From the NCBI GenBank assembly GCA_000004695.1, contig CM000151.3:3520001-3584000 (forward strand): DNA of 64,000 bases, read 5' to 3'. The notes beneath the pieces are model-generated. The model was not told the DNA's origin. It worked only from the letters and a program-made list of their open reading frames with translations, and ran no database searches. Origin of the DNA: Dictyostelium discoideum (lineage: Eukaryota). Of the stretch, positions 4,332 through 64,000 are shown piece after piece (the first letter of the stretch is position 1; each line of letters opens with the position of its first letter). A program made the position numbers and the translations under genes.

Positions 4332-4786
4332 TTTTTTTTTTTTTTTTTTTTGAATTGGATAACGCAATTATTATTTGCTTCTCCTTGAGATGCTAGATCT
4401 CATTTTATTTTATTTTTTTTTTTTTTTACAGGGTCTCTAAAAGAGGGGTTGGTTTACTTTTTTTTTTTTTTTTTTTTTTTGTTTCGAATTTTGAATTGTA
4501 TTATTACTTTTGATTAAAACATCTTTTTTGTCCAAACTTTTTTCTAAATCTTTTTTTATTTTATCGTCTGGTTCGTGATTGATGTTTATGACGTATTTGA
4601 ATTGTTTTTTTTTTAATTGAGTTTTATCCACAATTTCGCTTATTTTTTGTAGGCATTTGTGTTGCTTAATATTTGTGGTGTTGTTTGTGATTTTCATTTT
4701 ATTTTCTTTCTATTTTTTTTATTTTTCTTTAAAAAGTTAAAAATCTGGAAATTTTCTGATTAACTTGGGTTCCAGGTTTTTTTTTT
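4332..4786 (-). mobile_element. 5'-truncated TRE5-like non-LTR retrotransposon 3' end (C-module-like), flanked by an 18-bp target-site duplication. Itself interrupted by a roughly 115-bp insert (4376..4489).
   Basis: Poly(T) 4332-4350 is the element poly(A) on the minus strand. 4352-4375 and 4490-4560 are the reverse complement of 14366-14447 (the tail of the element next to tRNA-Glu). ttttaaacatatgcacag occurs at 4314-4331 and 4787-4804. The block ends 48 bp upstream of tRNA-Leu. Confidence 0.6.
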
Positions 4787-6532: not shown

Positions 6533-8833
<2,301 letters not shown>

Positions 8834-13683: not shown

Positions 13684-14457
13684 TTATATGAACACCATCC
13701 AAAATTAACTCCTGGCCAAAAAGAAATAATGATCAAAATGAATAGCAAACACCTTCCATTTAAAGAAATTAAAAAAATAATAAACATGGAAGGTAGAGAC
13801 CTATTATGGAGATACACACAGAAAGCACTACCAAAAATATACAACATGCCATGCCAACAGTATGGGGAAGATGAGACTTCAGAACATATATTCTTCAACT
13901 GCAAAGCCCACATCAAAAACACACAAGAAATCTTCAACTACACATTAACCAAGTGTGGACACACCTGGAATGTTAAGATTTTAAACCATCTACAAATTGC
14001 ACTAATATCCAATTTAATAGCTATTATATTCGAAAAAATTTGGCACAAAAGAAACAAACTCATCCACGATGAAATAGAAATAGTAATTCATAGACAACAA
14101 GTCATACGTGAACTAATTAAAACACAAAGAGTTGCATGGGATAGGACACAAGCGGTTATAAACAAAACATTAAGAATCAAATCAAAGCAATGGCCAGAAG
14201 AACAAAATAAATTAGACTCATTAATCTCTAAAGTTATTACAATTTAACAGACAATGGAACTCACCTCTTCACGCAATAGCACTTCCCAAACATCTCAAAA
14301 AATACAATAATTCACTCAGTACTCTCTATAAATGAAAAAAAAAAAAAAAAAAAAAAAATATAAAAAAAGATTTAGAAAAAAATTTGGACAAAAAAGATGT
14401 TTTAATCAAAAGTAATAATACATTCAAAATTGCGTTATCCAATTCAAAAAAAAAATA
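13684..14457 (+). mobile_element. 5'-truncated TRE5-like non-LTR retrotransposon: ORF2 C-terminal portion (13729..14247, Cys/His-rich tail HIFFNCKAHIKNTQEIFNYTLTKCGH), A-rich tract, then C-module-like tail and oligo(A).
   Basis: The element's 5' junction is about 46 bp upstream of tRNA-Glu on the opposite strand. The tail 14366-14447 is repeated inverted at 4352-4560. Candidate TSD ttaattattt at 13672-13681 and 14458-14468. Confidence 0.6.
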
Positions 14458-20441: not shown

Positions 20442-24569
<4,128 letters not shown>

Positions 24570-26716: not shown

Positions 26717-27587
26717 AATTCAAAATGAATTAAAGAAAAGTTTAATTGAAAAAGATGATTTTAATTTTAAAATTGATGATGAAAATAAAATGAATACAAC
26801 ATTGAAATATATTGGTGGTGTTGATATTAGTTTTGTAAAAGATAATGATATTGATGCATGTGCATCATTAATTGTAATAGAATATCCATCATTGAAAATA
26901 GTTTATAAAGATATTGAATTTGTTAAATTAAGTGAATTATATATTCCAGGATTTTTAGCATTTAGAGAAACTCCTCATTTAATTAAATTAATTAATAAAT
27001 TAAAACAATCAATAACCTATAACCATTTATTACCTCAAATTATAATGATTGATGGTAATGGTATTCTACATCCACGTGGATTCGGTTTAGCTTCTCATTT
27101 AGGTGTTTTAATTGATATTCCAACAATCGGTGTTGGTAAAACTTTCTTTCATGTTGATGGTTTATCAACAAAAGAAATAAAATCAAAAGTTGAATCTGAA
27201 AGATTAAAATATTTATCAACAACAACTACCACTGATGTAACAACAACACCCTCACCCAATAATAATAAAAATAATAAAAATAATAAAATTAAAAACAATA
27301 ATAATAATATAAGAGAAGATATAAATATAGAAGTTCCATTAAAAGGTGAAAGTGGTAGAATTTGGGGTTCAGCAATATTAAGTAATAGTAACTGTAAGAA
27401 TCCAATTTATGTTTCAGTGGGACACCGAATTTCATTAGAGACAGCTTTAAAGGTTGTTAAATTAACTTCACCATACAGAGTACCTGAATCAATTAGACAA
27501 GCAGATTTATTATCAAGAGATTATATTAGATTAAATTTTAATAAAATACAAACCACTGCTACAACTACTACAACTACTACAAACTAA
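26717..27587 (+). CDS. Endonuclease V exon 2 (after a 109-nt intron). Total about 322 aa.
   Basis: [71 protein letters not shown] align with human ENDOV. N/T-rich insert. Confidence 0.85.
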
Positions 27588-36411: not shown

Positions 36412-37173
36412 ATGTCTACCCAAGGTTTAGTTCAACTCCTCGCAAATGCTCAATGCCATTTAAGAACCTCAACCAATTACAATGGTGTCCACACTCAATT
36501 TAATTCTGCCTTAAACTACAAAAACAATGGTACCAATACCATTGATGGTTCAGAAGCTTGGTGTTCATCAATCGTAGATACCAACCAATACATTGTTGCT
36601 GGTTGTGAAGTTCCACGTACTTTTATGTGTGTTGCTCTCCAAGGTCGTGGTGATGCTGATCAATGGGTTACATCATACAAAATCCGTTATTCATTAGATA
36701 ATGTTTCCTGGTTTGAATATCGTAATGGTGCTGCTGTTACTGGTGTAACTGATCGTAACACTGTTGTTAATCATTTCTTTGATACTCCAATTAGAGCTCG
36801 TTCAATTGCTATCCACCCATTAACCTGGAATGGTCACATTTCATTAAGATGTGAATTCTACACTCAACCAGTACAAAGCTCAGTCACTCAAGTTGGTGCA
36901 GATATTTACACTGGTGATAACTGTGCCTTAAATACCGGTTCAGGTAAACGTGAAGTTGTTGTCCCAGTTAAATTCCAATTTGAATTTGCTACTCTCCCAA
37001 AGGTTGCTCTCAACTTTGATCAAATCGATTGTACTGATGCCACCAATCAAACCCGTATTGGTGTCCAACCAAGAAATATTACCACCAAAGGTTTTGATTG
37101 TGTTTTCTACACTTGGAATGAAAACAAAGTTTACTCATTAAGAGCTGATTACATTGCTACCGCTTTGGAATAA
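36412..37173 (+). CDS. Discoidin I, third copy (253 aa). About 95% nucleotide identity to 1045..1806.
   Basis: [42 protein letters not shown]...ATALE. Confidence 0.95.
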
Positions 37174-38507: not shown

Positions 38508-39340
38508 GTACCAGGTCATGAAGTAATTGGAAAAGTTGATAAATTAGGACAAGGTGTTAATAATGAAGAATATGGAATTGGTAAAATGGTAGGAGTTGGA
38601 TGGTTTGGTGGTAATCATTGTGGTAAATGTGAAGATTGTAAAGAGAATGAATGGGTACATTGTAAAGAATCCTATGTTTGTGGAATTCATTATGATGGTG
38701 GATATGCAGAGTATATGACAGCACCAGCAGATTCACTAGTTCCCATACCAGATTGTATGGATCCAGTTGAAAGTGCACCATTGTTATGTGCAGGTGTAAC
38801 TGTATTCAATTCATTTAGAAATCAAAAAGTTAAAGCACCTGCATTAGTTGGAGTTCAAGGTATTGGTGGATTAGGTCATTTGGCAATTCAATTTTGTAAG
38901 AAAATGGGTTTTGAAGTGATTGCTCTATCAAGTGGAAATTCAAAAGAACAATTAACCAAAGAATTGGGTGCTCATTATTATGTTGATACTTCAAAAGATG
39001 GATACATTGATAAAGTTAAATCAATTGGTTCAGTCAAATGTATTTTAGTAACTGCTCCATTTGCATCGGCTGTACCAGGTCTATTAGAATGCTTAGGTAC
39101 AAATGGTAAATTAGTCATCCTTGCCGCATTTAATGAACCATTTAATGCAAGTTCTATAGCAATGATTGGTGGTTCGAAATCAATTATTGGTTGGGCTTCT
39201 GGAGATTCTCGTGACTCTTCTGATACCTTTAACTTTGCTCGTAATAACCAAGTTAGACCAATGGTAAAATCATTCACATTAGAAGAAGCAAATGAAGCAT
39301 TAGATGGAATTAATAATGCTAGATTTAGAAATGTTATTAA

Positions 39341-39347
<7 letters not shown>
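38508..39347 (+). CDS. ADH exon 3. Total 336 aa.
   Basis: VPGHEVIGKV, GGNHCGKCEDCKENEWVHC (structural zinc Cys cluster), GVQGIGGLGHLAIQFCKKMG (Rossmann GxGxxG). Confidence 0.85.
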
Positions 39348-45282: not shown

Positions 45283-45597
45283 CAATTAAAAATATTATCA
45301 GAGACAGCATTAAATGAACATCAACAAGCAGAAAAAGAGAAATTAGAAAAGATGTTAAAAGAAAGAGTGAAACCATCAGTTGAAAAAATGGATAAAGAAA
45401 TTGATATACTTACAAAGAAACTATTAGATTTATATCATAAGAGAGATTTATTAACACAAAAGAAAGTTTATACAGAGGATTCCGCTGAGGATGCAACAAA
45501 GATAAATACACCTGAACAAAAAGAATATATACCATTCGATACAATTTCAAAAGGTAGTGATGACGTTGTTGGTTCAACAACTCCAAAAGAAGTTTAA
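45283..45597 (+). CDS. Putative exon 2 of the same gene (IENQLKILSETALNEHQQAEKEKLEKMLKERVKPSVEKMDKEIDILTKKLLDLYHKRDLLTQKKVY...).
   Basis: Open frame begins at acceptor atatttAG (45281-82). Confidence 0.35.
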   Translation, partial: QLKILSETALNEHQQAEKEKLEKMLKERVKPSVEKMDKEIDILTKKLLDLYHKRDLLTQKKVYTEDSAEDATKINTPEQKEYIPFDTISKGSDDVVGSTTPKEV

Positions 45598-46227
45598 AAA
45601 AAGAATAACGAAATATAAAAGGAAAAAAAAAAAAAAATTAACAATTCAATCATATATAAACTCATACAAACAAACAACAACAACAACAACAACAGCAGTA
45701 AAACATCAATAATATACTTCATACAAATCTTTGGATAATTAAAAGCGCATACTTTTTTATTTTTATTTTTTTTTTTTTTTAAAAAAAAGCAATAACAACA
45801 ATAATAAACCTGTAAATAAATAAAACACAACTGAATACAAATTATAAATTTTACTTTATATATTATTTTTTTTTATTTTTCTTTTTATTTTCATTTTACA
45901 AAAAAGTAATTATGAATTAGCTTAAGATTTTTTAAAAATAAAATCATGATTAAATAAATAAAAAGTTTAAAATTTTTAGAAACTCATTAAAAAAAAAGGA
46001 ATATTTTATTTGTTTATAATTTTTAATTATGCAAACCCACATCAAAACATATCACATCACATCACATCACACATTCAGATATTAATCTTATTTTTATTTT
46101 CTTTATTTTTTTATTTTTTTTATTTTTTTTTTTTAATTTTACAAAAATAACCCACAAAATATCTAACATCATCCCTAATTCTATATTATTCTTCAATTTA
46201 ATAAACTTTTTAAATCATATTGAACTT

Positions 46228-46328
<101 letters not shown>

Positions 46329-46829
46329 GTAAAAATAATAATAATAATAAATTTTTTTTTTTTTAATTTTAGAATTTAATATTTTTATAAAGTTTATCTT
46401 AACATACCATATTTTATAATTTAATTTCAAAAAGTAATTACTTGATTTAAAATTAATTTTTTGAAATATTTTTTTTCTTATAACCCCTTCCATTCCACCA
46501 TCTACCACTATTAATAAAAATAAAATTTCAAATAAACAGTTTATTAATTATTTCATAAAAAATGAGATATTTCAAATAATTTGATAATTAATACCATACA
46601 TTTTAATCATTAGTATTGAATAGTGTAAAAATAGTCTTTAAAAATTTTAATTGAAAAAAAAAAAAAAAAAATTATTGGTGAGAGTATGTGTGTAGGTGGG
46701 GGTGATTATATTTGTGTGGGTTCAATTAAAATTTTAAATTGTCTAGAATTGAAAATTGAAACCTTTTATAAATTATTATTTCTAATAAAAATACTATTTT
46801 TAATTCTATTTTAATAGATTTAATTGTCA

Positions 46830-47942
46830 ACAAATGAAAAAGTGTTGCTATTAGTATTCTAAAATCACTTTATAATATTACTTCAATTAATATGGTAAAC
46901 TCTTCAAACACTTTAATTGTGAGCCAGGATCTCAGTTTTTTCACCAACTATATTAAATTAAAAATTAAACTTGTTACTTCATTTTATAATAAATCTCTTC
47001 CTCAATTAAAGAAATTAGATAATTTGTAAATATAAATTATTATTTTACATTTACCTTATATAATATAATTACATTAATTTAATTTTTTTTTTTTTTTTTT
47101 TTAATTAATAGGGAAATTTCTAAAATCTTATTATAAAAACAAATATATTATTCAAAAACAGTTTCTTTAAGAAATATTTCTACAAAAATAAAAATAAAAA
47201 ATTTTTTATATTTTTCATTGATAAAATTTAAATTAATTTCCATTCATAAATATATAACCTTACTTTTAATCATTTTGATATATATAGTCTTAAAATAGAA
47301 AAAAAACATTTCTTGTGAGTGATTATTTTAGTGTTTTTTATTAAAAAAATAAAAAAATAATAATAAAAAATTTATAATATATTATAATTTATTATTATAA
47401 TTATTTATTTTTATAATTAAATTTTTATTATTATTATTTTTTTTTTTTCTTAATTTTTTTTTCTTTATAAATAATTTGAAATTAATTTTTTTTTTTCCTA
47501 ACTAAATTGTTAAAAAAATGAAATATATTAAATTAATTTTTATTATAATCTGTTTTTATATAAATTATCAAAGTATTAGTTCTCTTGGAAATCAAGTATC
47601 CATAAATGAAGCTCTTGTTGCTATAGGTATTCTAAAATCACTTTATAATATTGGCACAAACAATTTTAAAGAAGTTTGTGATTATAATGATTGTTTTAAA
47701 TGTTCATTATATAATGTTTCAAAACTATATACTATAACTTCAATTAAAATGCAAAAATCTTGAAATATTTTTATTGTTACCCAGGATCCCAATGTTTTTA
47801 AATCCTTAACTAAATTAGTAATTGGTGAAAAAGTTCAACTAACAACTTTGTTTTATAATGAAACACTCCCTTTATTAAAAAATTTAAAAAAATTGTAAAT
47901 ATGTATTATAATTACTCAACTTTGTTATAATAACATTATTTT

Positions 47943-48001
<59 letters not shown>

Positions 48002-48790
48002 AATAGAGAAATTTCAAACCAAGAACATCCTTTCCCAGATAAATTTAATATCCCAGATAAATTGTCAGGAGTTCAATTTAATTCAATTTTTGTACCATTA
48101 AGTTCAATTTGGTTTTAGGCAAATATTTATTCATTATATGTTTATAATACATTACCTGGTTTTATATATCCAAAATTAACAAAAAAAATATAAATTTAAA
48201 TATAAATGGATTTATATTTGACACTCAATCATATTGATAGTAATGTACCATCATTGAAATTAATCAAAAATTTATTAGGATTGGGATTTGGAATTTATAA
48301 TGAAATGTCTCAAAAAGGTTACAAGAATTTTTCAATTGATTCAATTAATCGAGTATATAAATGTGGCATTGGAGTTCAATTTCATTAACTCTGGTAATGA
48401 AGCAACAATTCAAAAATTCACATCACAACAATCATTAATTTCAAAATTTAAACTTTGTTGGTTGGTTTTCAAAGGAATTAGTTTTACTCTTGATCCATCT
48501 ATTGGTTATTTATTTAATAATTTTTCAAAGATGGATGATATATATGGTATTGATTTATATGTATAAATATATTGCTTTTAAAAATTTTTTTTTTATGTAT
48601 TATTAATGTAATTTATAATATTTTTTATTTTTAAAATAGGAAAATAAATGGAACTTGTGATCTGGTTAATGAATGTAAAGTTACAAATTGTGTTGTACTA
48701 CCTACTGTTACATCAACCTCACATAATACATTTAGAAATATTTGTTGTAAAACTACCTCGGTAACACCAGTTGATTATTTGATTGTTTAT
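46830..48790 (+). pseudogene. Degenerate copies of the secreted Cys-rich family (see 49600..50828). There is an exon-1-like fragment 46830-47040 without a start, an exon-1-like ORF 47518..47763 with a premature stop, an exon-2-like segment 48000-48570 with a frameshift, and an exon-3-like segment 48640-48790.
   Basis: Colinear by eye with the intact downstream copy. The reading frame is broken at several points. Confidence 0.55.
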
Positions 48791-49599
48791 TAAAAAAAAA
48801 AAAAATGGAATGTTTGGCTTTCCAACTCCACAATGGTAATAGCAATGTAAGAGGATTATCTTTAGCACTAAATCTGATCCCCTCCCTTCTTTAAAATTAA
48901 AAAATTGATCATTTTTATTTAATTTTAGAATTTAATATTTTATAATGTTTTTCTTTATATCACAAATATTTAAAAATTTTAATTAAATTGCATCCATAAA
49001 CAGTTTCATAAATCTAGGATGTTTTAAATAAATTAGTGTAATTATTATGAAATTATTTCGATCTATTAATTATACCATACTTTTAATCGATACAATAAAC
49101 ATATTATTTATTATTAAAATAGTTTTTAAAATTTGGAAAAAAAAAAAATAATTTTAGTGGGGTATGTGCAGGTGAGGGTGAGATTGTATCCGTGTGAAGT
49201 GTTAATTGGGGTTGAATTAAAATTTATTACCATTCACTAATATTTAAAGCCATACTTTTAATCATTATGATATATAGTCTTAAAACAATAGCAAAAAAAA
49301 TTTTAGTGGGGGGGTGTGATTATTTCTGTGTTTATGTGTGTAGGTCAAGGTGTGATTATTTCTGTGTAAATATTTTTAAAGGGGTTGGATATAAATTATC
49401 ATTTATCAAGAATTATATGTCTTAATAAAATTATATTATAATTCATTTATTATTATTTTTATATAATTTTAATTATTATTATTTTTTTTTAATTTTAATT
49501 ATTGTTGTTTTTTTTATTTTTATTTTTTTTTTTTTTCCTTTATAAATAATTTGAAATTAGTTTTTTATTTTTTTATTTAAAATTAAATTTTATAAAAAA

Positions 49600-49970
49600 A
49601 TGAAATATATTAACCTAATTTTTATTTTAATTTGTTTTTATATAAATTATCAAAGTATTGGTGCTGATAGAAATGAATTCCCCATAAATGAAATTCTTGC
49701 TGCTAAAAGTATTCTAAAATCACTTTATAATTTTGAAGCAAAAACTTTAGAAGAAATTTGTTTTTATGGTTGTTTTGTATGTTCACCTATTTATGAACCA
49801 AAAACATATGGTATAACTACAATTAGAATAAACTCTACAAGATTATCTTTTGTTTCTTATGATTTCAGTATTTTTCGATATTTATCTGAATTAATAATTG
49901 AAGAAAATATTCAAATACAAACCGTATTTTATGAAAAAACACTTCCTTTATTAAAAAATTTAGAGCTTTT
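49600..49970 (+). CDS. Secreted Cys-rich protein, intact copy, exon 1 (signal peptide MKYINLIFILICFYINYQSIGA).
   Basis: Donor GTAAAT at 49971. Phase 2. Confidence 0.6.
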
Positions 49971-50018
49971 GTAAATATAAATGATAATTACTCTCATTTG
50001 TTATAATTTCATTATTTT

Positions 50019-50068
<50 letters not shown>

Positions 50069-50083
50069 CTCTAATTGATATAG

Positions 50084-50626
50084 AGAAGTTTCAAAACAAG
50101 AACAACCTTTCCCAGATAATTTTAGTCCCCCAGAAAAATTGAAAACTGTTCAATTTAATTCAATTTCTGTGCCATTAAGTTCAATTTGGTTTGAGGGAGT
50201 TATTAATAGAATAATTGTTAAAAAAACATTACCTGGTTTTAAATATCCAAAACTAACAAAAATAAATACATATATAAATACATTGAGTTTATCACTCAAT
50301 CATATTGATACAAATGTACCATCAATGGATTTATTCCCAAATTTAGAATTAATAAATTTTCAAATTCATAATGAAATGTCTCAAAAAGGTTACAAGAATT
50401 TTTCAATAGATTCAATTAATCAAGATTGGTATAAAAGAGTCAATGCAATGGAAATCCAATTCATAAACTCTGGTAAAGAAGCAACAATTCAAAAATTCAC
50501 ATTACAACAATCATTAATTTCAAGATTTAAACTTGACTATTTACTTATAGATGGAATTGGTTTTACTGTTGATCCATCTATTGGTTATTTAAATTTTTCA
50601 AAGATGACTGATAAAGGTTTTGTTTT
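50084..50626 (+). CDS. Secreted Cys-rich protein exon 2.
   Basis: Acceptor gatatAG. (L)EVSKQEQPFPDNFSPPEKLKTVQFNSISVPLSSIWF... Donor GTATGT. Confidence 0.6.
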
Positions 50627-50704
50627 GTATGTATATATATATTCTTTTTAAATAATGTTTTTTTAATATCTTATTAATGAAATTATTATTATTTTTTAAA
50701 ATAG

Positions 50705-50828: not shown

Positions 50829-51367
50829 CACCAAATATAATTGATTCATCATCTAAAACTACCTATTGAACAACAAACAACAGCAACAACAGGAACTAAT
50901 TCAACACAGCTTGATGATAATAATTTTCATTAAATTAAACCTATCATTGATATTTAATAAAAGTTTATATTATAATTATATATATTACATATTATATAAT
51001 ACAGTTTAAAAAGAAATATGAGTGCATTAATTTGATTACTTAAAAAAATGGTTTTAACACAATTGTGTTTTGTCTTTTAATTTCCAATTTATTAAGAAAA
51101 TTGTAAATGTTGCAGGGAATTTTCAATAAAATTTCTTTCCAGTGAATTTTTTAATTTAATTTCCCTACACTAACTGAGAGAAAAAAAAAAATCATTGACC
51201 ATTAATTTTTTTTTTTTTAAAAAAACAAATAAAGTTTATTATTTTTTGTTTTTCAATTATTATTTATTTGTTTATTATTATTAAAATCCCTCAGGTGATT
51301 TTTTTTTTTTTTTTTTTTTATTTTTTTTATTTTTTTTTTAATTTTTTTTTTTATTATATTGAAATTC

Positions 51368-51413
<46 letters not shown>

Positions 51414-51467
51414 TTTTTGGTTCAAGAAAAAAAAAATGTAATATAATTTTTATAAAATACAATTAAA

Positions 51468-51484
51468 ATGAGTAAAGAATATGA
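51468..51484 (+). CDS. Rab1-like small GTPase exon 1 (17 nt: MSKEY + 2 nt).
   Basis: Donor GTAAGA. Splicing gives MSKEYEHLFKFVLAGDSGVGK, matching the Rab N-terminus (EYDYLFKLLLIGDSGVGKS). Confidence 0.6.
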
Positions 51485-51538
51485 GTAAGAATCTATTTTT
51501 TATTTTTTTCTTTTTTTTTTTTGTTGAAAAAATATTAA

Positions 51539-51581
<43 letters not shown>

Positions 51582-51584
51582 TAG

Positions 51585-51625
51585 ACACTTATTCAAATTT
51601 GTACTTGCAGGTGATAGTGGAGTTG
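51585..51625 (+). CDS. Rab1-like exon 2 (P-loop).
   Basis: Acceptor tatAG. HLFKFVLAGDSGV + 1 nt. Donor GTAAAT. Confidence 0.7.
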
Positions 51626-51707
51626 GTAAATATTAACTGCAATAAATAATAAATAATAATAATTAATAATTAAATAAATAAATTAATTATTAATTATTAA
51701 AAAAAAG

Positions 51708-52222
51708 GTAAAACAAGCATTTTATTTAGAATTACAGATGATACATTTACTGAAACACATATAACAATTGGTATTGAGTTTAAAATAAAGACAGTTTATA
51801 TTGAAGGTAAACCAATAAAACTTCAAATTTGGGATACAGCTGGAGAAAAGCGATTTAGAGTTCATAATTCACATTATAGAGGTTGTCATGGAGTTATTAT
51901 AGTTTATGATGTTACAGATCAAAGATCATTTGAAAATGTTCCCTCATGGATAGAAGATATCCGAAGATATGCAAATGAAAATGTCATTAAAATTATAATT
52001 GGAAATAAAAATGATTTAGTCTCACAAAAAGTGGTTGACCCTTTTTTAGCTCAAGAATTTGCCGATTCTTTAGATATTCCATTCAAAGAAATAAGTGCAA
52101 AACAATCAATTAACATTGAAGAGGCTTTTATCTCTTTAGTAAAGCTTTGTATAAATAGAATTGAAGAAACTTCTCTAAAAAAAACACAATCCCCCGAAAA
52201 AAATAATTGTATAATAAATTAA
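51708..52222 (+). CDS. Rab1-like exon 3. Total 190 aa. C-terminal CIIN.
   Basis: GKTSILFRITDDTFTETHITIGIEFKIKTV, WDTAGEKRF (Gln to Glu), GNKNDL, ISAK. Confidence 0.8.
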
Positions 52223-52715
52223 TAAAAAAAAAAGGATTTACACTTACACAAACCAATTATTACTAGATATTTTTTTTTTTTTTTTAATAAAATTCAAATC
52301 ATTTTTAAAATTTTTTTTGGATATTTTAAAAGATGCAAAGCAACACATTTTTTTTTAAAAAAATACACACCTTTTTATAATACTCTTTTTTTAGGGATTA
52401 CAATTGACACAAATTTTTTTCGAGTGCAAAACGGTATTTTTTTTTTTTTTTTTTATTTAGTTTTAAAAACAAATAATAATACTTAAATATAAATAATTTT
52501 TTGTAATATATTATTATTTTTTTTTTTTTTTTTAATATTATAAAATTTCTTTTTGATAAAAAAGTTAAAAAAAAAAAAAAAAAAATTCCCAAAAAAAAAA
52601 AAAAATCCCAAAAAAAAAAAAATATCAGTTTTTTATTATTATCATAAACAAATCGATTTTACCAAGAATTTAATAATTAATAGTAAATATAACGAGACTC
52701 TTTTGAAATAAAAAT

Positions 52716-55666: not shown

Positions 55667-55723
55667 ATGGAGTTTTTAAAATTAATATTGTTTCTAATAA
55701 TTTTTTATATAATCCATAATACT
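55667..55723 (+). CDS. Cytochrome P450 copy 1, exon 1 (membrane anchor MEFLKLILFLIIFYIIHNT).
   Basis: Donor GTTTGT. Same position as in copies 2 and 3. Confidence 0.6.
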
Positions 55724-55824
55724 GTTTGTATTTTTTCTTTAATTTTAATAAAAAAAAAAAAAAAAAAAGGATAATAATAATAATTATACTTTTTTCTAAA
55801 CACAGATATGGTAAAATTTAAATA

Positions 55825-55868
<44 letters not shown>

Positions 55869-55891
55869 GAAATTAAATCAATTTTTATCAG

Positions 55892-56177
55892 TATATTAAA
55901 TTTAAAAAAATAAATAAAAATGAATTAAAAGGACCAATTCCAATTCCAATTTTAGGAAATTTATATCAACTTACAAGTGGTTTACCACACAGAGATTTAA
56001 CTAAAATATCTGAAAAATATGGTGGAATTTATAGATTTTGGTTTGCTGATTTATACACTGTTGTATTATCTGATCCAATTTTGATTAGAGAAATGTTTGT
56101 TAACAATGGTGATTATTTCCTAGACAGACCAAAAATACCTTCAATAAGACATGCAACTCATTATCATGGTATTGCAA
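55892..56177 (+). CDS. P450 copy 1, exon 2.
   Basis: [27 protein letters not shown]...[18 protein letters not shown]. No intron after DRPKIP. Donor GTTAGT. Phase 1. Confidence 0.7.
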
Positions 56178-56182
56178 GTTAG

Positions 56183-56219
<37 letters not shown>

Positions 56220-56280
56220 AAAAAACTAAAAAAAAAATTAATTATTAATTTTTTTTTTTTTTTTTTTTTAAAAAAAAAAG

Positions 56281-56808
56281 CATCTTCTGGTGAATATTGG
56301 TTAAAAATTAGAGATATAATTAATAAAGCAATGAGAAAAACCAATTTAAAATTAATTTATGATTCATTAGATCAACAAGTTGATAATTTAATTGAATCAA
56401 TGAATAAAATTGAAAGTGATGGACAAGTATTTGAACCACGTATTTATTTTAAAAAATATACAATGGCAGCAATGTATAAATTCATTTTCAATGAAGAAAT
56501 AAATTTTAATAATGAAATATCTGAATTAATTGGGCCAATTGAACAAGTTTTCAAAGATTTAGGAAGTGGTAGTTTATTTGATGTTTTATTAATATCAAGA
56601 CCATTATATTATCAATGGATTGAACATACTGATAAAAATTATCCAAAAATTTTAAATTTTTTAAAAAAAAAATATCATCAACATTTAAAAACTTATAATC
56701 CAGAAATTCAAAGAGATTTATTAGATTTATTAATTAAAGAATATTATAGTGGAAGTGATGATGATATTTTAACAATTATTGCAACTATAAATGATTTATT
56801 TTTAGCTG
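56281..56808 (+). CDS. P450 copy 1, exon 3.
   Basis: (T)[23 protein letters not shown]...NDLFLAG. Donor GTTTGT. Confidence 0.7.
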
Positions 56809-56878
56809 GTTTGTATTAAATTAGTTTTATTATTTTTTATTAAAAAATTTCAATTATTAATAAATTTATTTAAAATAG

Positions 56879-57281
56879 GTACTGATACAAGTAGTGCTTC
56901 ATTAGAATATATGGTTATGATGTTAGTTAATTATCCAGAAATTCAAGAGAAAGTATATGATGAAATTAAATTAACTGTTAACGGTAGAAATAAAGTTTTA
57001 TTATCTGATAGACAATTTACACCATATACAGTTTCATTTATTAAAGAAACATTAAGATATAAACCACCATCTTCTGTTGGTGTACCAAGAACTACTTCTC
57101 AAGATATTATAATTGGTGATAAATTCATTCCAAAAGATGCTCAAATTTTTATAAATTATTATGGACTTTCAAGAAATCAAGATTATTTTGAAAATCCTGA
57201 ACAATTTGAACCATCAAGATTTATGAATCCAGATACAAATATTGCATTTTTACCATTTAGTATTGGTACAAGAAATTGTGT
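56879..57281 (+). CDS. P450 copy 1, exon 4.
   Basis: (G)[24 protein letters not shown]...ETLRYKPP...[12 protein letters not shown]. Donor GTAAGT inside the heme-binding motif. Confidence 0.8.
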
Positions 57282-57367
57282 GTAAGTAAAAAAAAATTAT
57301 TTATTTTATTATTTTTTTTAATTATTTATTTAAAAATTGTTAAATTAATTTTTTTTTTTTTTTTAAG

Positions 57368-57533
57368 TGGTCAAAATTTTGCATTAGATGAAATGTTTCT
57401 TGCATTTTCAAATATAATTTTAAATTTTAAATTTAGTTCAATTGATGGGAAACAAATTGATGAAACTGAATTGTATGGAGTTACATTAAGATGCAAGAAT
57501 AAATTTAATGTATCCATTAAAAAAAGAATTTAA
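57368..57533 (+). CDS. P450 copy 1, exon 5. Total 479 aa.
   Basis: (V)[22 protein letters not shown]...KKRI*. Confidence 0.8.
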
Positions 57534-57577
57534 TTCATTGTAAAATTTAATAAAAAATAATTAATTATAATAAATAA

Positions 57578-57630
<53 letters not shown>

Positions 57631-58371
57631 CTGTGAGCGTGTAAATATTGGATTAAATTTTATTGAATATTATTGTGTCCAAATTTAACCCAATACAAAA
57701 AAAATTATAATTTTTTATTATTTTTATTATTATTTTCATTATTTTTTTTATTTTTTTTTTTATTTTTTATTTTTTATAAAATCTCAAAAATTGAGAATAA
57801 CAATGAAAAAAAAAAAAAAAAAAAAAAAGAAAAAAAAAGAAAAGAAAAAAAGTGTGTGTATTTTTTGTGCATATTGAATAGAAAATGTGTGGGGATCTTA
57901 AAATTTTTTTTTAATTTTTTTTTTTTAATAATGGTGTTAGTATTATTTTTTTATTTTTTATTTTTTTTTTATTTTTTTTATTTTTTTTATTTTTTTTTAT
58001 TTTTTTTTTTTGTACATTAGATTGTGAGGAGACATCTTACTCAGTTGAGAAAACAATAATTTATTTTTATGATTCATAGATTTACTATGTTAATCATCTA
58101 TGTTGTCAGTTTTAATTCAAACATTATTAAAATAATTTTTTTTTTTTAATTTTTTTTTTTTTATTTTTTTTTTTTTTTTTTAAACTGTTGTTGAACAAAA
58201 AAAAAAAAAAAAAAAAAAACAAAAACAAAAACAAAAAAATATTTAAACCAAAAATTAAAAATATAAATAAAAATATAAAAAATAAAAATATAATTGTTGA
58301 AAAGAAAAAAAAAAAAAAAACAAAAAAACAAAAAAAAAAATTACTTGCACACAAGTGGTAATTTAAAAAAT

Positions 58372-58428
58372 ATGGCTTTATTTGAAATTATTATTTCATT
58401 ATTTGTTGTTTATATTATACATAATGCT
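58372..58428 (+). CDS. P450 copy 2, exon 1 (MALFEIIISLFVVYIIHNA).
   Basis: Donor GTAAGT. Confidence 0.7.
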
Positions 58429-58566
58429 GTAAGTCCTATTATTTTATATTAAAAAAAATAAAAATAAATATAATTAATCTAAATTATTATTATTATTATT
58501 TTTAAAAATAATCATTTTTTAATTTTTTAATTTTTTATTTTTAAAATAATTATTTTAATTAATCAG

Positions 58567-58812
58567 ATTTCAAAATATAAAAAAATTCATGTTAATGAGT
58601 TATGTGGTCCAACCCCAATTCCAATTTTAGGAAATCTCCATCAATTTGGAGAATTACCTCATAGAGTATTAACAAAGATGACTAAAAAGTATGGCCATAT
58701 TTTAAGGGTTTATATGGCAGACATGTACACTGTTGTTGTATCTGATCCATTATTAATTAGAGAAATGTATGTTGATAATTCTGATATTTTCACCGATAGA
58801 GTTAAAAAACCA
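58567..58812 (+). CDS. P450 copy 2, exon 2.
   Basis: [82 protein letters not shown]. Donor GTATGT. Confidence 0.8.
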
Positions 58813-59071
58813 GTATGTATCAAAATTAAATAATTAATAAATTGTGTGTTAATTTATTTTTTTTTTAATTATTAATTATTTATTTATTAATTATTAATTA
58901 TTAATTATTTTATTTAAAAAATAAAAAATTTATAAATAATTAATAATAATAATTAATTAAAATAATTAATAATTTAAAAAAAAAAAAAAAATTAATTATT
59001 AATTATTAATTATTTATTTATTAATTATTAATTATTAATTATTTTATTTAAAAAATTAAAAATTTAAATAG

Positions 59072-59651
59072 TCAGTTGAACATGGAACATTTTATCATGG
59101 TACAGTTACAAGTTATGGTGAACATTGGAAAAACAATAGAGAAATTGTTGGTAAAGCAATGAGAAAAACAAATTTAAAACATATTTATGAATTATTAGAT
59201 AAACAAGTTGATGTATTAATAAGATCAATGAAATCAATTGAAACCAGTGGTAAAACATTTGATACTCGTTATTATATTACAAAATTTACAATGTCAGCAA
59301 TGTTTAAATTTCTTTTCAATCATGATATTCCAGAGGATGAAGATATTAATAAAGGTGATACACAAAAATTGATGGGTCCAATGTCTGAGGTTTTTCAAAA
59401 TGCTGGTAGAGGTAGTTTATTTGATGTCATAAATATTACTCAACCACTTTATCTTTTATATTTAGAAATGTTTGATCAAAGTTTTAAAGATATTATGAAA
59501 TATCATAGAGAGAAATATAATGAACATTTAAAAACCTTTGATCCAGATGTTGAAAGAGATTTACTTGATATTTTAATTAAAGAATATGGTACTGATAATG
59601 ATGATAAAATTTTATCAATTTTGGCAACAATTAATGATTTTTTCTTAGCAG
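59072..59651 (+). CDS. P450 copy 2, exon 3.
   Basis: [36 protein letters not shown]...NDFFLAG. Donor GTTTGT. Confidence 0.8.
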
Positions 59652-59703
59652 GTTTGTATTTATAAGTATTTATTATTATTATTATTTAAAAAAATAATAT
59701 TCT

Positions 59704-59739
<36 letters not shown>

Positions 59740-60142
59740 GTGTTGATACAAGTTCAACTGCTTTAGAATCAATGGTATTGATGTTAACAAATTATCCAGA
59801 AATTCAAGAAAAAGCATTTGATGAAATAAAGACAGTTGTAAATGGTAGAAGTAAAGTTAATTTATCAGATAGACAATCAACACCTTATTTAGTTGCTGTA
59901 ATAAAAGAAACATTAAGATATAAACCAATGTCACCATTTGGTTTACCAAGATCTTCATCAAAGGATTGTATGATTGGTGGTCATTTCATTCCAAAGAATG
60001 CACAAATTTTAATTAATTATCAAGCACTTGGAATGAATGAAGAATATTATGAAAATCCAGAACAATTTGATCCATCAAGATTTTTAAAAGTTGAATCAAA
60101 TGTTGCATTTTTACCATTTAGTATTGGTATTAGAAGTTGTGT
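59740..60142 (+). CDS. P450 copy 2, exon 4.
   Basis: (G)[24 protein letters not shown]...[15 protein letters not shown]...[12 protein letters not shown]. Donor GTATGT. Confidence 0.8.
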
Positions 60143-60215
60143 GTATGTATAATTAATTTTTAAAAAAAATTAAAAAATAAACAATTAATTAATCAATTAA
60201 ATTATTTTTTTATAG

Positions 60216-60384
60216 GGGTCAAAGTTTTGCTCAAGATGAGCTATACATTTGTATTTCAAATATTCTTTTAAATTTTAAATTAAAATCAATTGACGGTAAA
60301 AAGATTGATGAAACTGAGGAATATGGCCTCACACTAAAAACTAAAAATAGATTCAATGTAACTCTTGAAAAAAGAATTATCTAA
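60216..60384 (+). CDS. P450 copy 2, exon 5. Total 484 aa.
   Basis: (V)[55 protein letters not shown]. Confidence 0.8.
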
Positions 60385-60419
60385 TTTTTATATTTATTTA
60401 AATAATTATAATAATAATA

Positions 60420-60465
<46 letters not shown>

Positions 60466-60567
60466 AATTTAAAAAAAAACTATTTAACTTCAAAAACAAA
60501 AAAAAGGATTCATTGTGACTCAAAAAAGAAATAACAAATTTTTTAATATATTTTTTAAATAATTAAA

Positions 60568-60600
<33 letters not shown>

Positions 60601-60949
60601 AATTAAAAATATAAAATTAATAAAAATACTAGTTAACGCGATAACCTTATTTTTATTGGTTTGATATTTAACTTTATTATTCAAGAATTTCATTTTTTAC
60701 TTTCAAATTTAATAAAGATTTTTTTTTATTTTTTTTTAAAAAAGAGGGTTGGTTTTTTTTTTTTTTTTCAATTTGAAAAGAATCTTTACTTTTGAAGATA
60801 TTTATAAATTACTATAATTAATTTTTATTTTTTTTAATTTTATTTTTTTATTTTTTTTTGGCATATTTTATGGTTTTTTTTTTTGATTTTATAATTAAAT
60901 TTTTTTTTTTTTTTTTTTTTTTAATTTCATAAAATCAATTTTTAAAAAA

Positions 60950-61003
60950 ATGATATTTGGCATCATTGTGTATCTATTTTTAATTTATATTTTACATAAT
61001 GCT
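60950..61003 (+). CDS. P450 copy 3, exon 1 (MIFGIIVYLFLIYILHNA).
   Basis: Donor GTAAGT. Confidence 0.7.
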
Positions 61004-61119
61004 GTAAGTATTTTTTTATTATTTTTTCTTTTTTTTATTTTCTAAAAAATTTAAAAAACATGTTAGTCTACCAAAAAAAAAAAAAAAAAAAAATAAAAAA
61101 AAAAAAATAAAAATAAAAG

Positions 61120-61365
61120 TATTCAAAATATAAAAGATTAAATGAAAATCAATTACCAGGTCCTTTTCCAATTCCTATATTGGGCAACATTTATCAGTTA
61201 ACCAATTTACCTCATTTTGATTTAACAAAGATGAGTGAAAAATATGGTAAAATCTTTAGAATTTATTTAGCAGACTTATATACAGTTATTGTTTGTGATC
61301 CAATAATTGCAAGAGAGCTATTTGTTGACAAGTTTGACAATTTCATTGACAGACCAAAAATACCA
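61120..61365 (+). CDS. P450 copy 3, exon 2.
   Basis: [82 protein letters not shown]. Donor GTATGT. Confidence 0.8.
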
Positions 61366-61467
61366 GTATGTAAAATTTTTTTTTTTTTTATAATAGTTTT
61401 TATTTCTTTTTTTTTTAATAATAATAAATAAGATTAATTAATTAAATAAATAAAATAAAATAAATAG

Positions 61468-62486
61468 TCAGTAAAACATGGAACATTTTATCATGGTACA
61501 GTAGCATCAATGGGTGATAATTGGAAAAATAATAAAGAGATTGTTGGTAAGGCAATGAGAAAGACCAATTTAAAACATATTTATCAATTATTGGATGATC
61601 AAGTTGATGTATTAATTGAATCGATGAGAACCATTGAATCCAGTGGTGAAACATTTGATCCACGTTATTATTTAACCAAATTTACAATGTCAGCAATGTT
61701 TAAATATATTTTCAATGAAGATATTTCCAAAGATGAAGATGTGCATAATGGTCAATTAGCACAATTAATGAAACCAATGCAAAAGGTATTCAAAGATTTC
61801 GGTACTGGTAGTTTATTTGATGTTTTAGAGATAACAAGACCATTGTATTTCTTATATTTAGAATGGTTTACAAGTCATTATTATCAAGTTATTAATTTTG
61901 GTAAAATGAAAATTTATAAACATTTAGAAACTTACAAACCAGATGTTCAAAGAGACTTAATGGATCTATTGATTAAAGAATATGGTACAGAAACTGATGA
62001 TCAAATTTTATCAATCTCTGCAACAGTTAGTGATTTCTTTTTAGCTGGTGTTGATACTTCTGCAACTTCTTTAGAATTAATTGTAATGATGTTAATTAAT
62101 TATCCAGAATATCAAGAGAAAGCTTATAATGAAATTAAATCAGCATTATCATCAAATGGTGGCGGTGGTGGTGGTGGTTTAACTCAGAGAAATAAAGTTT
62201 TGTTATCAGATAGACAATCAACACCATTTGTTGTATCATTATTTAAAGAAACATTAAGATATAAACCAATATCACCATTTGGTTTACCAAGATCAACTAC
62301 CTCTGATATCATTTTAAATAATGGTCAATTTATTCCAAAGAATGCTCAAATTTTAATTAATTATCATGCATTATCTAGAAATGAAGAATATTTTGAAAAT
62401 CCAAATCAATTTGATCCAACTAGATTTTTAAATTCTGATTCAAATCCAGCTTTCATGCCATTTAGTATTGGTCCAAGAAATTGCGT
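61468..62486 (+). CDS. P450 copy 3, exon 3 (long; it contains the FLAG|VDTS position without an intron).
   Basis: [36 protein letters not shown]...[14 protein letters not shown]...[15 protein letters not shown]...[12 protein letters not shown]. Donor GTAATG. Confidence 0.85.
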
Positions 62487-62586
62487 GTAATGTATCTAAA
62501 TTATATTCTCACTCAATTACTTAATTGATTTGAGTATTATCATGTATATATTTTCAGATATTAATTTTTTATTTTTAATAATTTAG

Positions 62587-62852: not shown

Positions 62853-64000
62853 TTATTTTGTCCCCATAATAATTTTAACTTTTGGTGGAAATGGTACTTT
62901 ATCTTCAAATTTATAATTAATTAAATGAATTGTTTTTAAAGATGATGGGAAATTTTTAATTGGGTGGATAATGTTATCAAGATAAAGAGTTTCAAGTTGA
63001 TCAGGTAATTCAATTGATTCATTATTGAATTGATTATGAAGGTATAATATTTTAATTGAGCTTGGTATTGACAATGCTTGTCTTTTAATATCATATAAAT
63101 GTAATTCTTGAATTGATGATGGTAAAACACCATATCCTAATGATTTTGAAAATCCATCATGTATATGAAGACATTTTACATTCTTACCAATTGATTCAGT
63201 TGTTAATGGTTCATTAATTCTATAAAAGTGAACTGTTTTAGCTGAATCTGGTATAACATTCTTTGTGAATTTAATTTTACAATTATCATGAAAATGAATT
63301 TCATTAACTGAACTGCATTGAATATAGAATGCATGTGATTTTTTAATATCACCAATGTGTAGTACTTTAATTGATTTTGGAACAGAGTATACCAATTCTT
63401 TAAATCCATCTAATAATATTAATGTGTCAACTGAATTTGGTAAATTACCTTTAACAATTGGCCATGTATCTGCATAATCTCCATCAATCGATACACTCTT
63501 AACACCTGATTCAACTTTACCAATTACATATTTATTACTATTATTTTTAAAAATTTCAATTGATGCTACTTTTTTAATTTCAACCGGTGTAATTTTATCC
63601 AATGAAATTGTTGTTGTTGTGGTTGTTGTGGTGGTTGTATTTCTATTATCATACATTGTTGTTGAGTCTGGTAATGGAGCAGTTGGAATTGGTTGATAAT
63701 AAATTGGAGAACTCAAATTTGGTGTTGATAATGCTGATGATGATGAAATTATTGATTCTAAATAATTTATTTTTTCTAATAAAAATGAGGTGGTTTTTTG
63801 ATTACTGATATCTAATTGTTGGATTTTATCATATAATTTATTGAGTATTGGCGATAATGCAATGTAATGACAATTTGATTCATGTGATTGCAATTCTTTA
63901 ATTGGACCAACCCATGAACACATTAATGAACTTGCATTACATTTAACTGATTTTGAAGTACATTCATTTGAGTGTAATTTTAATTGTTCTCTTGTAAATT
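62853..64000 (-). CDS. FNIP-repeat-containing protein, 3' part. The gene continues upstream beyond the window end. The N-terminal readable portion has a Cys/His-rich zinc-finger-like segment.
   Basis: Repeated units of about 22-24 aa: LP.SI..L.FG..FN..I..LP.SL..L (FNIP repeats). The ORF is open to nt 64000 (...ECTSKSVKCNASSLMCSWVGPIKELQSHESNCHY). Confidence 0.7.
   Translation of the reverse strand, partial: FTREQLKLHSNECTSKSVKCNASSLMCSWVGPIKELQSHESNCHYIALSPILNKLYDKIQQLDISNQKTTSFLLEKINYLESIISSSSALSTPNLSSPIYYQPIPTAPLPDSTTMYDNRNTTTTTTTTTTISLDKITPVEIKKVASIEIFKNNSNKYVIGKVESGVKSVSIDGDYADTWPIVKGNLPNSVDTLILLDGFKELVYSVPKSIKVLHIGDIKKSHAFYIQCSSVNEIHFHDNCKIKFTKNVIPDSAKTVHFYRINEPLTTESIGKNVKCLHIHDGFSKSLGYGVLPSSIQELHLYDIKRQALSIPSSIKILYLHNQFNNESIELPDQLETLYLDNIIHPIKNFPSSLKTIHLINYKFEDKVPFPPKVKIIMGTK

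Follow-up and report, generated by a model that had tools for sequence, protein, structure and literature searches.

RabF1 of Dictyostelium discoideum: a young RabA-clade GTPase with glutamate in place of the switch II glutamine

This report concerns rabF1, a three-exon gene on the plus strand of chromosome 2 of Dictyostelium discoideum AX4, which encodes a 190-amino-acid (aa) GTPase of the Rab family. The gene occupies positions 51468-52222 of the 64-kb stretch of DNA analysed here, which we call the window and whose numbering is used throughout. Our data make it likely that RabF1 arose by duplication within the RabA clade, that its switch regions were remodelled after the duplication, that the gene is now held by selection, and that the protein would work as a slower-cycling switch poorly responsive to GTPase-activating proteins (GAPs). 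RabF1 would then be a dated Rab birth, following the split from D. citrinum, with remodelling centred on the switches, stabilised in D. discoideum, and with a D. cf. discoideum counterpart that has apparently decayed. It is also a natural Gln-to-Glu variant of the Rab1-type active site, a change on which the data from Ras mutants conflict. The gene is only mildly unusual, and no long-standing open question is touched by it.

RabF1 and the RabA clade

The gene was already known, and at the level of annotation nothing is new. Splicing of 51468-51484, 51585-51625 and 51708-52222 gives 573 nt in frame (190 aa plus stop), and the product, MSKEYEHLFKFVLAGDSGVGKTSILFRITDDTFTETHITIGIEFKIKTVYIEGKPIKLQIWDTAGEKRFRVHNSHYRGCHGVIIVYDVTDQRSFENVPSWIEDIRRYANENVIKIIIGNKNDLVSQKVVDPFLAQEFADSLDIPFKEISAKQSINIEEAFISLVKLCINRIEETSLKKTQSPEKNNCIIN, matches the Ras-related protein RabF1 (EAL71090.1, XP_645088.1, UniProt Q558I0; P0121 in our set) at every residue. 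A database search with the product returned an AX4 "Rab GTPase" at 99% identity, and the 190-aa Q558I0 was found via its cluster. The Pfam Ras family (PF00071) is matched over residues 10-166 (E = 4.8e-53, 179.5 bits), and TIGR00231 (small_GTP) is matched at 1.3e-24. The features of the gene are given below, motif columns having been judged in an 85-sequence alignment; ACTFIR denotes a second D. discoideum allele, taken from another assembly.

51468..51484, plus strand: exon 1, 17 nt (ATG AGT AAA GAA TAT GA), encoding MSKEY and the two leading bases of E6; unchanged in the ACTFIR allele
51485..51584, plus strand: intron 1, 100 nt, GTAAG...TATAG, 8% GC, with a long A run; 20 indel columns between alleles, adjoining exons intact
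51585..51625, plus strand: exon 2, 41 nt, coding for HLFKFVLAGDSGV and the first part of the P-loop
51610..51715, plus strand: G1/P-loop GDSGVGKT, residues 15-22, intact, split by intron 2; G, K and T/S columns invariant
51626..51707, plus strand: intron 2, 82 nt, GTAAAT...AAAAG, interrupting P-loop codon G20; alleles 27% diverged
51708..52222, plus strand: exon 3, 515 nt including the TAA stop, with the remaining G domain, the hypervariable tail and CIIN
51737..51781, plus strand: switch I DDTFTETHITIGIEF, residues 30-44, with Y37H, V42I, D43E and an AX4-lineage 3-nt deletion that places T39 right before IG
51836..51883, plus strand: switch II TAGEKRFRVHNSHYRG, residues 63-78, shorter by one residue than the switch II of RabA and Rab1
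51845..51847, plus strand: Glu66 codon GAA at the catalytic G3 position, CAA (Gln) in all RabA-clade relatives; the next codon, AAG, gives Lys67 for Glu
52004..52015, plus strand: G4 box NKND, residues 119-122, intact
52094..52102, plus strand: G5 box SAK, residues 149-151, intact
52145..52207, plus strand: hypervariable tail, residues 166-186, shorter by about 11-14 residues than the tails of RabA-type relatives
52208..52219, plus strand: CaaX-type box CIIN, residues 187-190; Cys187 is the sole Cys near the C-terminus

A first-pass annotation, made from the sequence alone, had described the product as a Rab1-like GTPase. This is borne out to the extent that the best matches in the PDB are Rab1A/1B (E about 2e-64, against about 1e-50 for Rab35/8/10) and that the best-named matches outside Dictyostelium are Rab1/Ypt1. 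However, the gene is annotated RabF1 and its nearest relative is RabA (P34141; about 79% identity, in a cluster that also includes D. cf. discoideum proteins), not one of Rab1A-D. D. discoideum has separate Rab1A-D genes. RabF1, RabA and the homologues of D. cf. discoideum, D. citrinum, D. firmibasis and D. dimigraforme form one clade, apart from Rab1/Ypt1, and RabF1 carries all three marks by which membership was judged: the C-terminal N-C-[IT]-I-N, a switch II of the form RFRVH(N)N-x-YRGCH, and exons of 17 nt, 41 nt and the rest. The N-C-[IT]-I-N end was present in 12/12 relatives aligned, with N-C-T-I-N in D. dimigraforme and N-C-I-I-N in the others. Judged by these sequence comparisons, the RabA clade is a dictyostelid offshoot of Rab1, and RabF1 is a young RabA paralogue.

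The differences from the two reference groups can be stated as follows. RabA and its relatives share with RabF1 the 17/41/rest exons, the RFRVH..YRGCH switch II, the N-C-I-I-N end and a Rab1-like core, but they keep WDTAGQERF, Tyr37, ISTIGVDF and full-length switch loops, have a tail that is 11-14 residues longer, lie at a different locus beside an ABCA transporter gene, and evolve more slowly, with a ratio of non-synonymous to synonymous substitution rates (dN/dS) of 0.12-0.16. Rab1/Ypt1 proteins (human Rab1A/1B, yeast Ypt1) are 52-57% identical to RabF1 and have the G1, G4 and G5 boxes, KLQIW and VYDVTDQ in common with it; in contrast, they have a two-Cys end (GGCC), the catalytic Gln and the switch II sequence RFRTITSSYYRGAH. 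RabF1 was rejected as a Rab1 orthologue, as it ends in CIIN, has the switch II sequence EKRFRVHNSHYRGCH rather than the QERFRTITSSYYRGAH of Rab1, and has no double Cys; a one-to-one orthology was likewise rejected, given the 53-57% identity to Rab1/Ypt1 of other eukaryotes, the Dictyostelium-only clade, and a syntenic locus that is empty in three sister species. The first-pass annotation was also right about the single-Cys CIIN end, but this end is conserved across the clade and is not peculiar to RabF1. Because the whole RabA clade ends in N-C-[IT]-I-N, the single Cys is inherited and ancestral to the clade, not new.

The consensus of the Rab-family motifs of Pereira-Leal & Seabra (2000) is reportedly IGVDF, KLQIW, RFrsiT, YYRGA and LVYDIT. 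By inspection only, the corresponding sequences of RabF1 are IGIEF, KLQIW, RFRVHN, HYRGC and IVYDVT, of which KLQIW is exact, IVYDVT is near and three are variants; RFRVHN and YRGC are common to the entire RabA clade. Five motifs of this kind are named in PMC10913462.

At 18 sites RabF1 departs from a residue on which five other clade members agree, counted as 21 residue changes and deletions. The changes are F13L, L26F, F28I, Y37H, a rearrangement of S-T in switch I, V42I, D43E, Q66E, E67K, an Asn missing from switch II, M83I, V84I, Q102E, E103D and A153S, and a change at I115 is found in AX4 only; the tail is also shorter. The switches hold more than their share of the changes at clade-invariant sites, with 7/18 of the sites in 31/190 residues (Fisher p = 0.014). 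In switch I, a 3-nt deletion has turned ACT TCA into ACA (51764-51766, compared with about 6310-6320 of L002), giving H-I-T-I-G in AX4 and H-I-T-S-I-G in ACTFIR and ACTFIW. The invariant switch I Thr is represented by T39-I-G in AX4, in an invariant column, and the other D. discoideum strains, with I-T-S-I-G, have a Ser aligned there.

The Glu that the first-pass annotation had read in WDTAGEKRF (residues 61-69) is confirmed: DTAG is followed by Glu66, in a column that is at least 90% Gln. In the DNA, CAA GAA (Gln-Glu) is replaced by GAA AAG (Glu-Lys), and within the RabA clade this change is found only in RabF1, all RabA-type relatives having CAA. Glu66 is present in 4/4 D. discoideum assemblies (the window, L001, L002 and P0123), which rules out a sequencing error or a mutation of the laboratory strain. 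The comparison indicates that the Gln-to-Glu change is real, lineage-specific and fixed in the species.

To gauge the rarity of this residue, 281 sequences were sampled: 120 were the top-ranking homologues, 150 each represented a cluster at 50% identity, and a small number of additional cluster members made up the rest. Gln followed DxxG in 256 motif matches, and roughly 10-15% had another residue, such as H, L, D, R, T, S, N or A. Apart from the RabF1 entries, Glu was found there in only three sequences, P0245, P0242 and P0266; these are unnamed and unrelated, come from unrelated organisms, represent independent events and are not characterised. P0245 resembles Rab1, has WDTAGEERF and terminates in the CaaX-like CRIM. 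CaaX-like ends occurred in 22/281 sequences. Rab24 and Rab25 are naturally without the switch II Gln. Rabs lacking this Gln are, from the sequences sampled, a known minority in which Glu is rare, although not unique.

Two observations on the relatives may be added. In D. firmibasis (L006), a second Ras-family gene (7767-8360; 197 aa, 49% identical to RabF1) lies 0.9 kb downstream of the RabA-like gene, a tandem small-GTPase pair that is not seen at the D. discoideum loci. The D. dimigraforme protein P0008 (ACTA71_004695) has an internal repeat of the segment comprising the end of the P-loop, switch I and beta2 (…STIGIDFKIKTVYIDGKSSILSRF…STIGVDFKIKTVYIEGK…), which is either an exon duplication or an artefact of the gene model.

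Predicted GTPase cycle and membrane anchor

As G1, the switch I Thr, DTAG, NKND and SAK are intact, RabF1 would still be expected to bind guanine nucleotide and Mg. Its remodelled switch surfaces would fit the regulators and effectors of RabA differently, resulting in a diverged set of partners. TBC-type GAPs provide both an Arg and a Gln in trans, with the Gln of the Rab itself touching the GAP backbone (PMC5902221). When the switch II Gln of Rab1 was mutated, TBC1D20-stimulated hydrolysis was greatly decreased and the basal rate changed less than 1.5-fold; this residue is also involved when certain guanine nucleotide exchange factors (GEFs) bring about the release of GDP (PMC3919270). By analogy, Glu66 would most likely lead to poor stimulation by TBC-type GAPs, and perhaps to altered GEF use, with basal hydrolysis little changed. 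The outcome would be a slower-cycling Rab with a longer-lived GTP form.

The first-pass annotation expected both intrinsic and GAP-stimulated hydrolysis to be lowered. The GAP-stimulated drop is plausible in view of the Rab1 data (PMC3919270), but a lower intrinsic rate is unsafe, since the basal rate of Rab1 mutants changed less than 1.5-fold and the reports on Ras Q61E conflict. Ras Q61E is cited as having raised intrinsic GTPase activity where PMC2987813 and PMC10515638 refer to Frech et al. 1994; according to the summary of Der et al. 1986 in PMC6813200, Q61E was impaired like other Q61 mutants. It had also been held that a known Rab with the same residues and a normal GTPase activity would speak against the first reading. 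RabF1 is itself a known Rab with these residues, although no measured GTPase activity was found in the literature.

A bolder reading, which we regard as rather doubtful, is that RabF1 is a new, species-restricted Rab whose Glu-Lys pair and re-sized switch loops have been selected and give a GTPase cycle unlike that of any characterised Rab, making it either a GAP-independent timer that hydrolyses GTP by itself with Glu as general base, or a near-permanent GTP-form tag on the membrane, beyond the reach of TBC GAPs. If this were true, RabF1 would be a natural experiment in which a new Rab identity was made within a few million years.

Alternatively, Glu66 might be a built-in general base, so that RabF1 would hydrolyse GTP faster by itself, cycle without GAPs and be a self-timing Rab rather than one with a long-lived GTP form. 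The citations of Frech et al. 1994 noted above point in this direction, and the change of QE to EK, which keeps one acidic residue and adds a basic one, resembles compensated remodelling more than simple loss. We nevertheless consider this unlikely: in the account of Der et al. 1986 given by PMC6813200, Q61E is as impaired as the other Q61 mutants; no characterised Rab has Glu at this position; and switch II is one residue shorter. Structure prediction did not help here, as the AF2 models were uninformative in switch II for RabF1 and for a control alike. The RabF1 model had a mean predicted local distance difference test score (pLDDT) of 76.6, drew helix alpha1 as a strand and gave a template modelling (TM) score of 0.6-0.7 against Rab1b, with Foldseek matches that were all Rab1. 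The control, a canonical RabA-type protein (P0002) modelled with the same alignment, had a pLDDT of 72.4 and the same defects, and for this reason no RabF1-specific structural conclusion was drawn.

With respect to the membrane, CIIN agrees with the CaaX pattern (Cys, two aliphatic residues, any residue), and a prenylatable Cys187 appears to be present. CaaX-type Rabs are a recognised minority class (PMC5716267, PMC5902221); they are described as singly prenylated, cleaved and methylated in the part of PMC5716267 that cites Leung et al. 2007, and Drosophila Rab26 ends in CRMN (PMC5716267, Table 1). By analogy, one prenyl group attached to Cys187 would anchor RabF1, after which -IIN would probably be cleaved off and the carboxyl group methylated. 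Rab8, Rab13, Rab18 and Rab23 resemble RabF1 in having a Cys four residues from the end and two aliphatic residues, but they belong to unrelated subfamilies and the likeness is confined to the type of C-terminus.

Origin, age and selection

No neighbours are common to the RabF1 locus and the RabA locus (L004, L007), locus B (L003, L005) or the D. firmibasis locus L006. As RabF1 shares no neighbours with the loci of its relatives, orthologues of its own neighbours were used to find the syntenic locus. In D. cf. discoideum ACTFIY, D. citrinum and D. firmibasis, the flanks proved to be conserved, with collinear gene order; they consist of a member of a tandem family upstream, and of a 194-aa gene, a 228-aa gene and cytochrome P450 genes downstream. 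The gap between the inner neighbours is about 0.4-0.5 kb in the three sister species versus 2.2 kb in D. discoideum, where rabF1 lies between two genes that are adjacent in the sister species. No Rab-like sequence was detected by tblastn at E<=1 at the syntenic loci of these three species (L008-L010), and tblastn found no second Rab in the window.

The synonymous divergence (dS) between RabF1 and RabA is 0.26, the ACTFIR RabA allele having been used in place of AX4 RabA DNA. For the neighbouring 194-aa gene, dS is 0.09 to ACTFIR, 0.15 to D. cf. discoideum and 0.51 to D. citrinum. Because 0.26 falls between 0.15 and 0.51, the duplication is dated to after the split from D. citrinum and before that from D. 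cf. discoideum. As the introns have been kept, the duplication was at the DNA level, and a retrocopy is ruled out.

D. cf. discoideum has a RabF1-like predicted protein, ACTFIY_003799 (P0278), encoded off the syntenic locus on another contig of 4,711,929 bp (GCA_054859205.1). It carries the RabF1-specific residues ILFRI, EPH, IGIEF and KQS, the short tail and TQSPEKNN, and it is without the P-loop, the entire DTAG/switch II block, NKxD and the CIIN end. Most simply, it would be a decayed RabF1 copy around which the gene caller has spliced.

Since the duplication, with D. citrinum as the outgroup, RabF1 has accumulated 30 amino-acid changes versus 9 for RabA, about a threefold difference (relative-rate test, p = 0.0008), and the branch dN/dS is 1.06 for RabF1 versus 0.16 for RabA; in 99.7% of bootstrap replicates the RabF1 value exceeded that of RabA. 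The rabF1 alleles of AX4 and ACTFIR show 12 synonymous and 6 non-synonymous differences (dN/dS 0.12; binomial p = 2.5e-5 versus neutrality), and the neighbouring 194-aa gene gives the same picture between these strains (dS 0.09, dN/dS 0.12). The open reading frame (ORF) and all splice sites of rabF1 are intact in four D. discoideum assemblies, with no neutral pattern such as a pseudogene would present. As the two alleles differ at a dN/dS of 0.12, the gene is constrained: the allelic and branch data together indicate that rabF1 is intact and under constraint among D. discoideum strains, a burst of change after the duplication having been followed by purifying selection.

The same data can be read as those of a redundant, decaying duplicate, an incipient pseudogene in which the Q-to-E change and the switch deletions are degenerative and without function. 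The RabF1-branch dN/dS of about 1, the changes at usually invariant positions (Y37H, Q66E and one-residue deletions in both switches), the in-frame switch I indel that is polymorphic in the species, the loss of G1, G3 and G4 boxes from the predicted ACTFIY_003799 protein, and the absence of the gene from the syntenic locus of three sister species would all be consistent with decay. We think this improbable, as the ORF and the four splice sites are intact in all four assemblies; the allelic dN/dS departs from neutrality and matches that of the neighbouring gene; the exon indels are all multiples of 3 and the intron indels are not; and G1, DTAG, G4, G5 and the CaaX box are unchanged.

Several points weigh against our preferred view of RabF1 as a selected, slower-cycling member of the RabA clade. 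To our knowledge, Asn as the CaaX "X" is no classic determinant for either CaaX prenyltransferase. Glu66 could serve as a general base, given the reports of raised intrinsic GTPase activity in Ras Q61E. The apparently decayed RabF1-like gene of D. cf. discoideum means that the lineage is dispensable in a close relative. Gene conversion among the paralogues could distort dating based on dS. With D. firmibasis as the outgroup, the branch dN/dS is 0.63 for RabF1 and 0.30 for RabA, a difference that is not significant. The Rab1 mutant data concern Gln substitutions other than Q-to-E (PMC3919270). The searchable literature yielded no data on the transcript, protein, localisation or enzyme activity of RabF1, so that the functional steps are inferred; when it was searched for RabF1, RabF2 and RabA of Dictyostelium, the only matches concerned the "RabF1-5" motifs of the Rab family or RABF genes of plants.

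Gene model and neighbouring genes

That the start codon lies in a 17-nt exon had been noticed in the first-pass annotation and is supported by comparison. The introns of rabF1 (100 and 82 nt, 6-8% GC) have the donors GTAAG and GTAAAT and the acceptors TATAG and AAAAG, and retention of intron 2 would lead to an immediate in-frame stop (GGT AAA TAT TAA). Comparative support for the junctions came from splice-aware threading of annotated proteins onto their own loci. The plan of 17 nt, 41 nt and 515-557 nt was recovered in 7/7 related loci solved, namely RabF1 in two further D. discoideum assemblies (one identical to AX4, the other ACTFIR), RabA, two D. cf. discoideum paralogues, and the D. citrinum and D. 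firmibasis genes; this agreement indicates that the 17-nt first exon is an inherited trait of the RabA clade. Between AX4 and ACTFIR, exon 1 is identical at 17/17 positions, exon 2 at 40/41 and exon 3 at 97%, with two indels of exactly 3 nt each in exon 3; the introns and flanks diverge by 6-27%, and their indels include lengths that are not multiples of 3. Very long T and A homopolymer runs are present upstream of rabF1 (51290-51415) and in intron 1 (51541-51576), and their lengths vary among strains.

A second AX4 record, EAL70401.1 (194 aa), comes from the same 8.48-Mb chromosome record and differs only in its end, NNFLKTNNNT instead of NNCIIN. The presence of two AX4 rabF1 records on one chromosome record fits the known chromosome 2 duplication of AX4, and the deviating 3' end is probably an annotation error in one copy of the gene. 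EAL70401.1 could be reproduced only by adding an intron and a short last exon:

52209..52460, plus strand: extra 252-nt intron, in EAL70401.1 only, reproduced with a 26-nt terminal exon (model span 52209-52486); judged spurious

It is very improbable that the 3' end of rabF1 is misannotated and that the real product is this 194-aa form, a soluble, non-prenylated Rab-like protein, even though the AX4 GenBank record does have the GT...AG intron 52209-52460 that changes CIIN to FLKTNNNT: NCIIN is kept at the C-terminus of all clade members in five species, the 26-nt exon is of low complexity and altered in frame and content in ACTFIR, the 190/192-aa form is used by the UniProt entry and by two newer assemblies, and the 252-nt intron is 2.5-3 times as long as the other two. 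Because the alternative exon is of low complexity and not conserved in ACTFIR, and NCIIN is conserved in five species, the 190-aa model was taken as correct, and the 3' intron of EAL70401.1 is probably false and removes the prenylation signal.

The window is very AT-rich with short GC-richer blocks, as is typical of Dictyostelium. Its other features are the following.

1045-1806, 36412-37173 and 38586-39347, plus strand: three 253-aa ORFs; in each of the two scanned, an H-type lectin domain comes after an F5/8 type C domain, the discoidin I architecture
20442-24569, minus strand: ORF of a 1375-aa protein kinase
26790-27587, plus strand: Endonuclease V ORF
about 45400-50650, plus strand: tandem paralogues of an unannotated family with no Pfam match, directly upstream of rabF1
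about 55700-62500, plus strand: tandem cytochrome P450 genes, downstream of rabF1
62853-63923, minus strand: FNIP-repeat ORF

The three 253-aa ORFs look like a dispersed or tandem set of discoidin genes. Within the unannotated family, the blocks 47754-48550 and 49770-50642 are alike at about 60-80% amino-acid identity, and the family is also found at the syntenic loci of the three sister species. D. cf. discoideum, D. citrinum and D. firmibasis all keep the P450 cluster, with three such genes in succession. Window positions 4341-4778 and 13963-14333 resemble an intergenic segment (L004 7705-8613) beside the D. cf. discoideum gene at the RabA locus, with 67-89% identity at the protein level; these sequences are probably copies of a mobile element.

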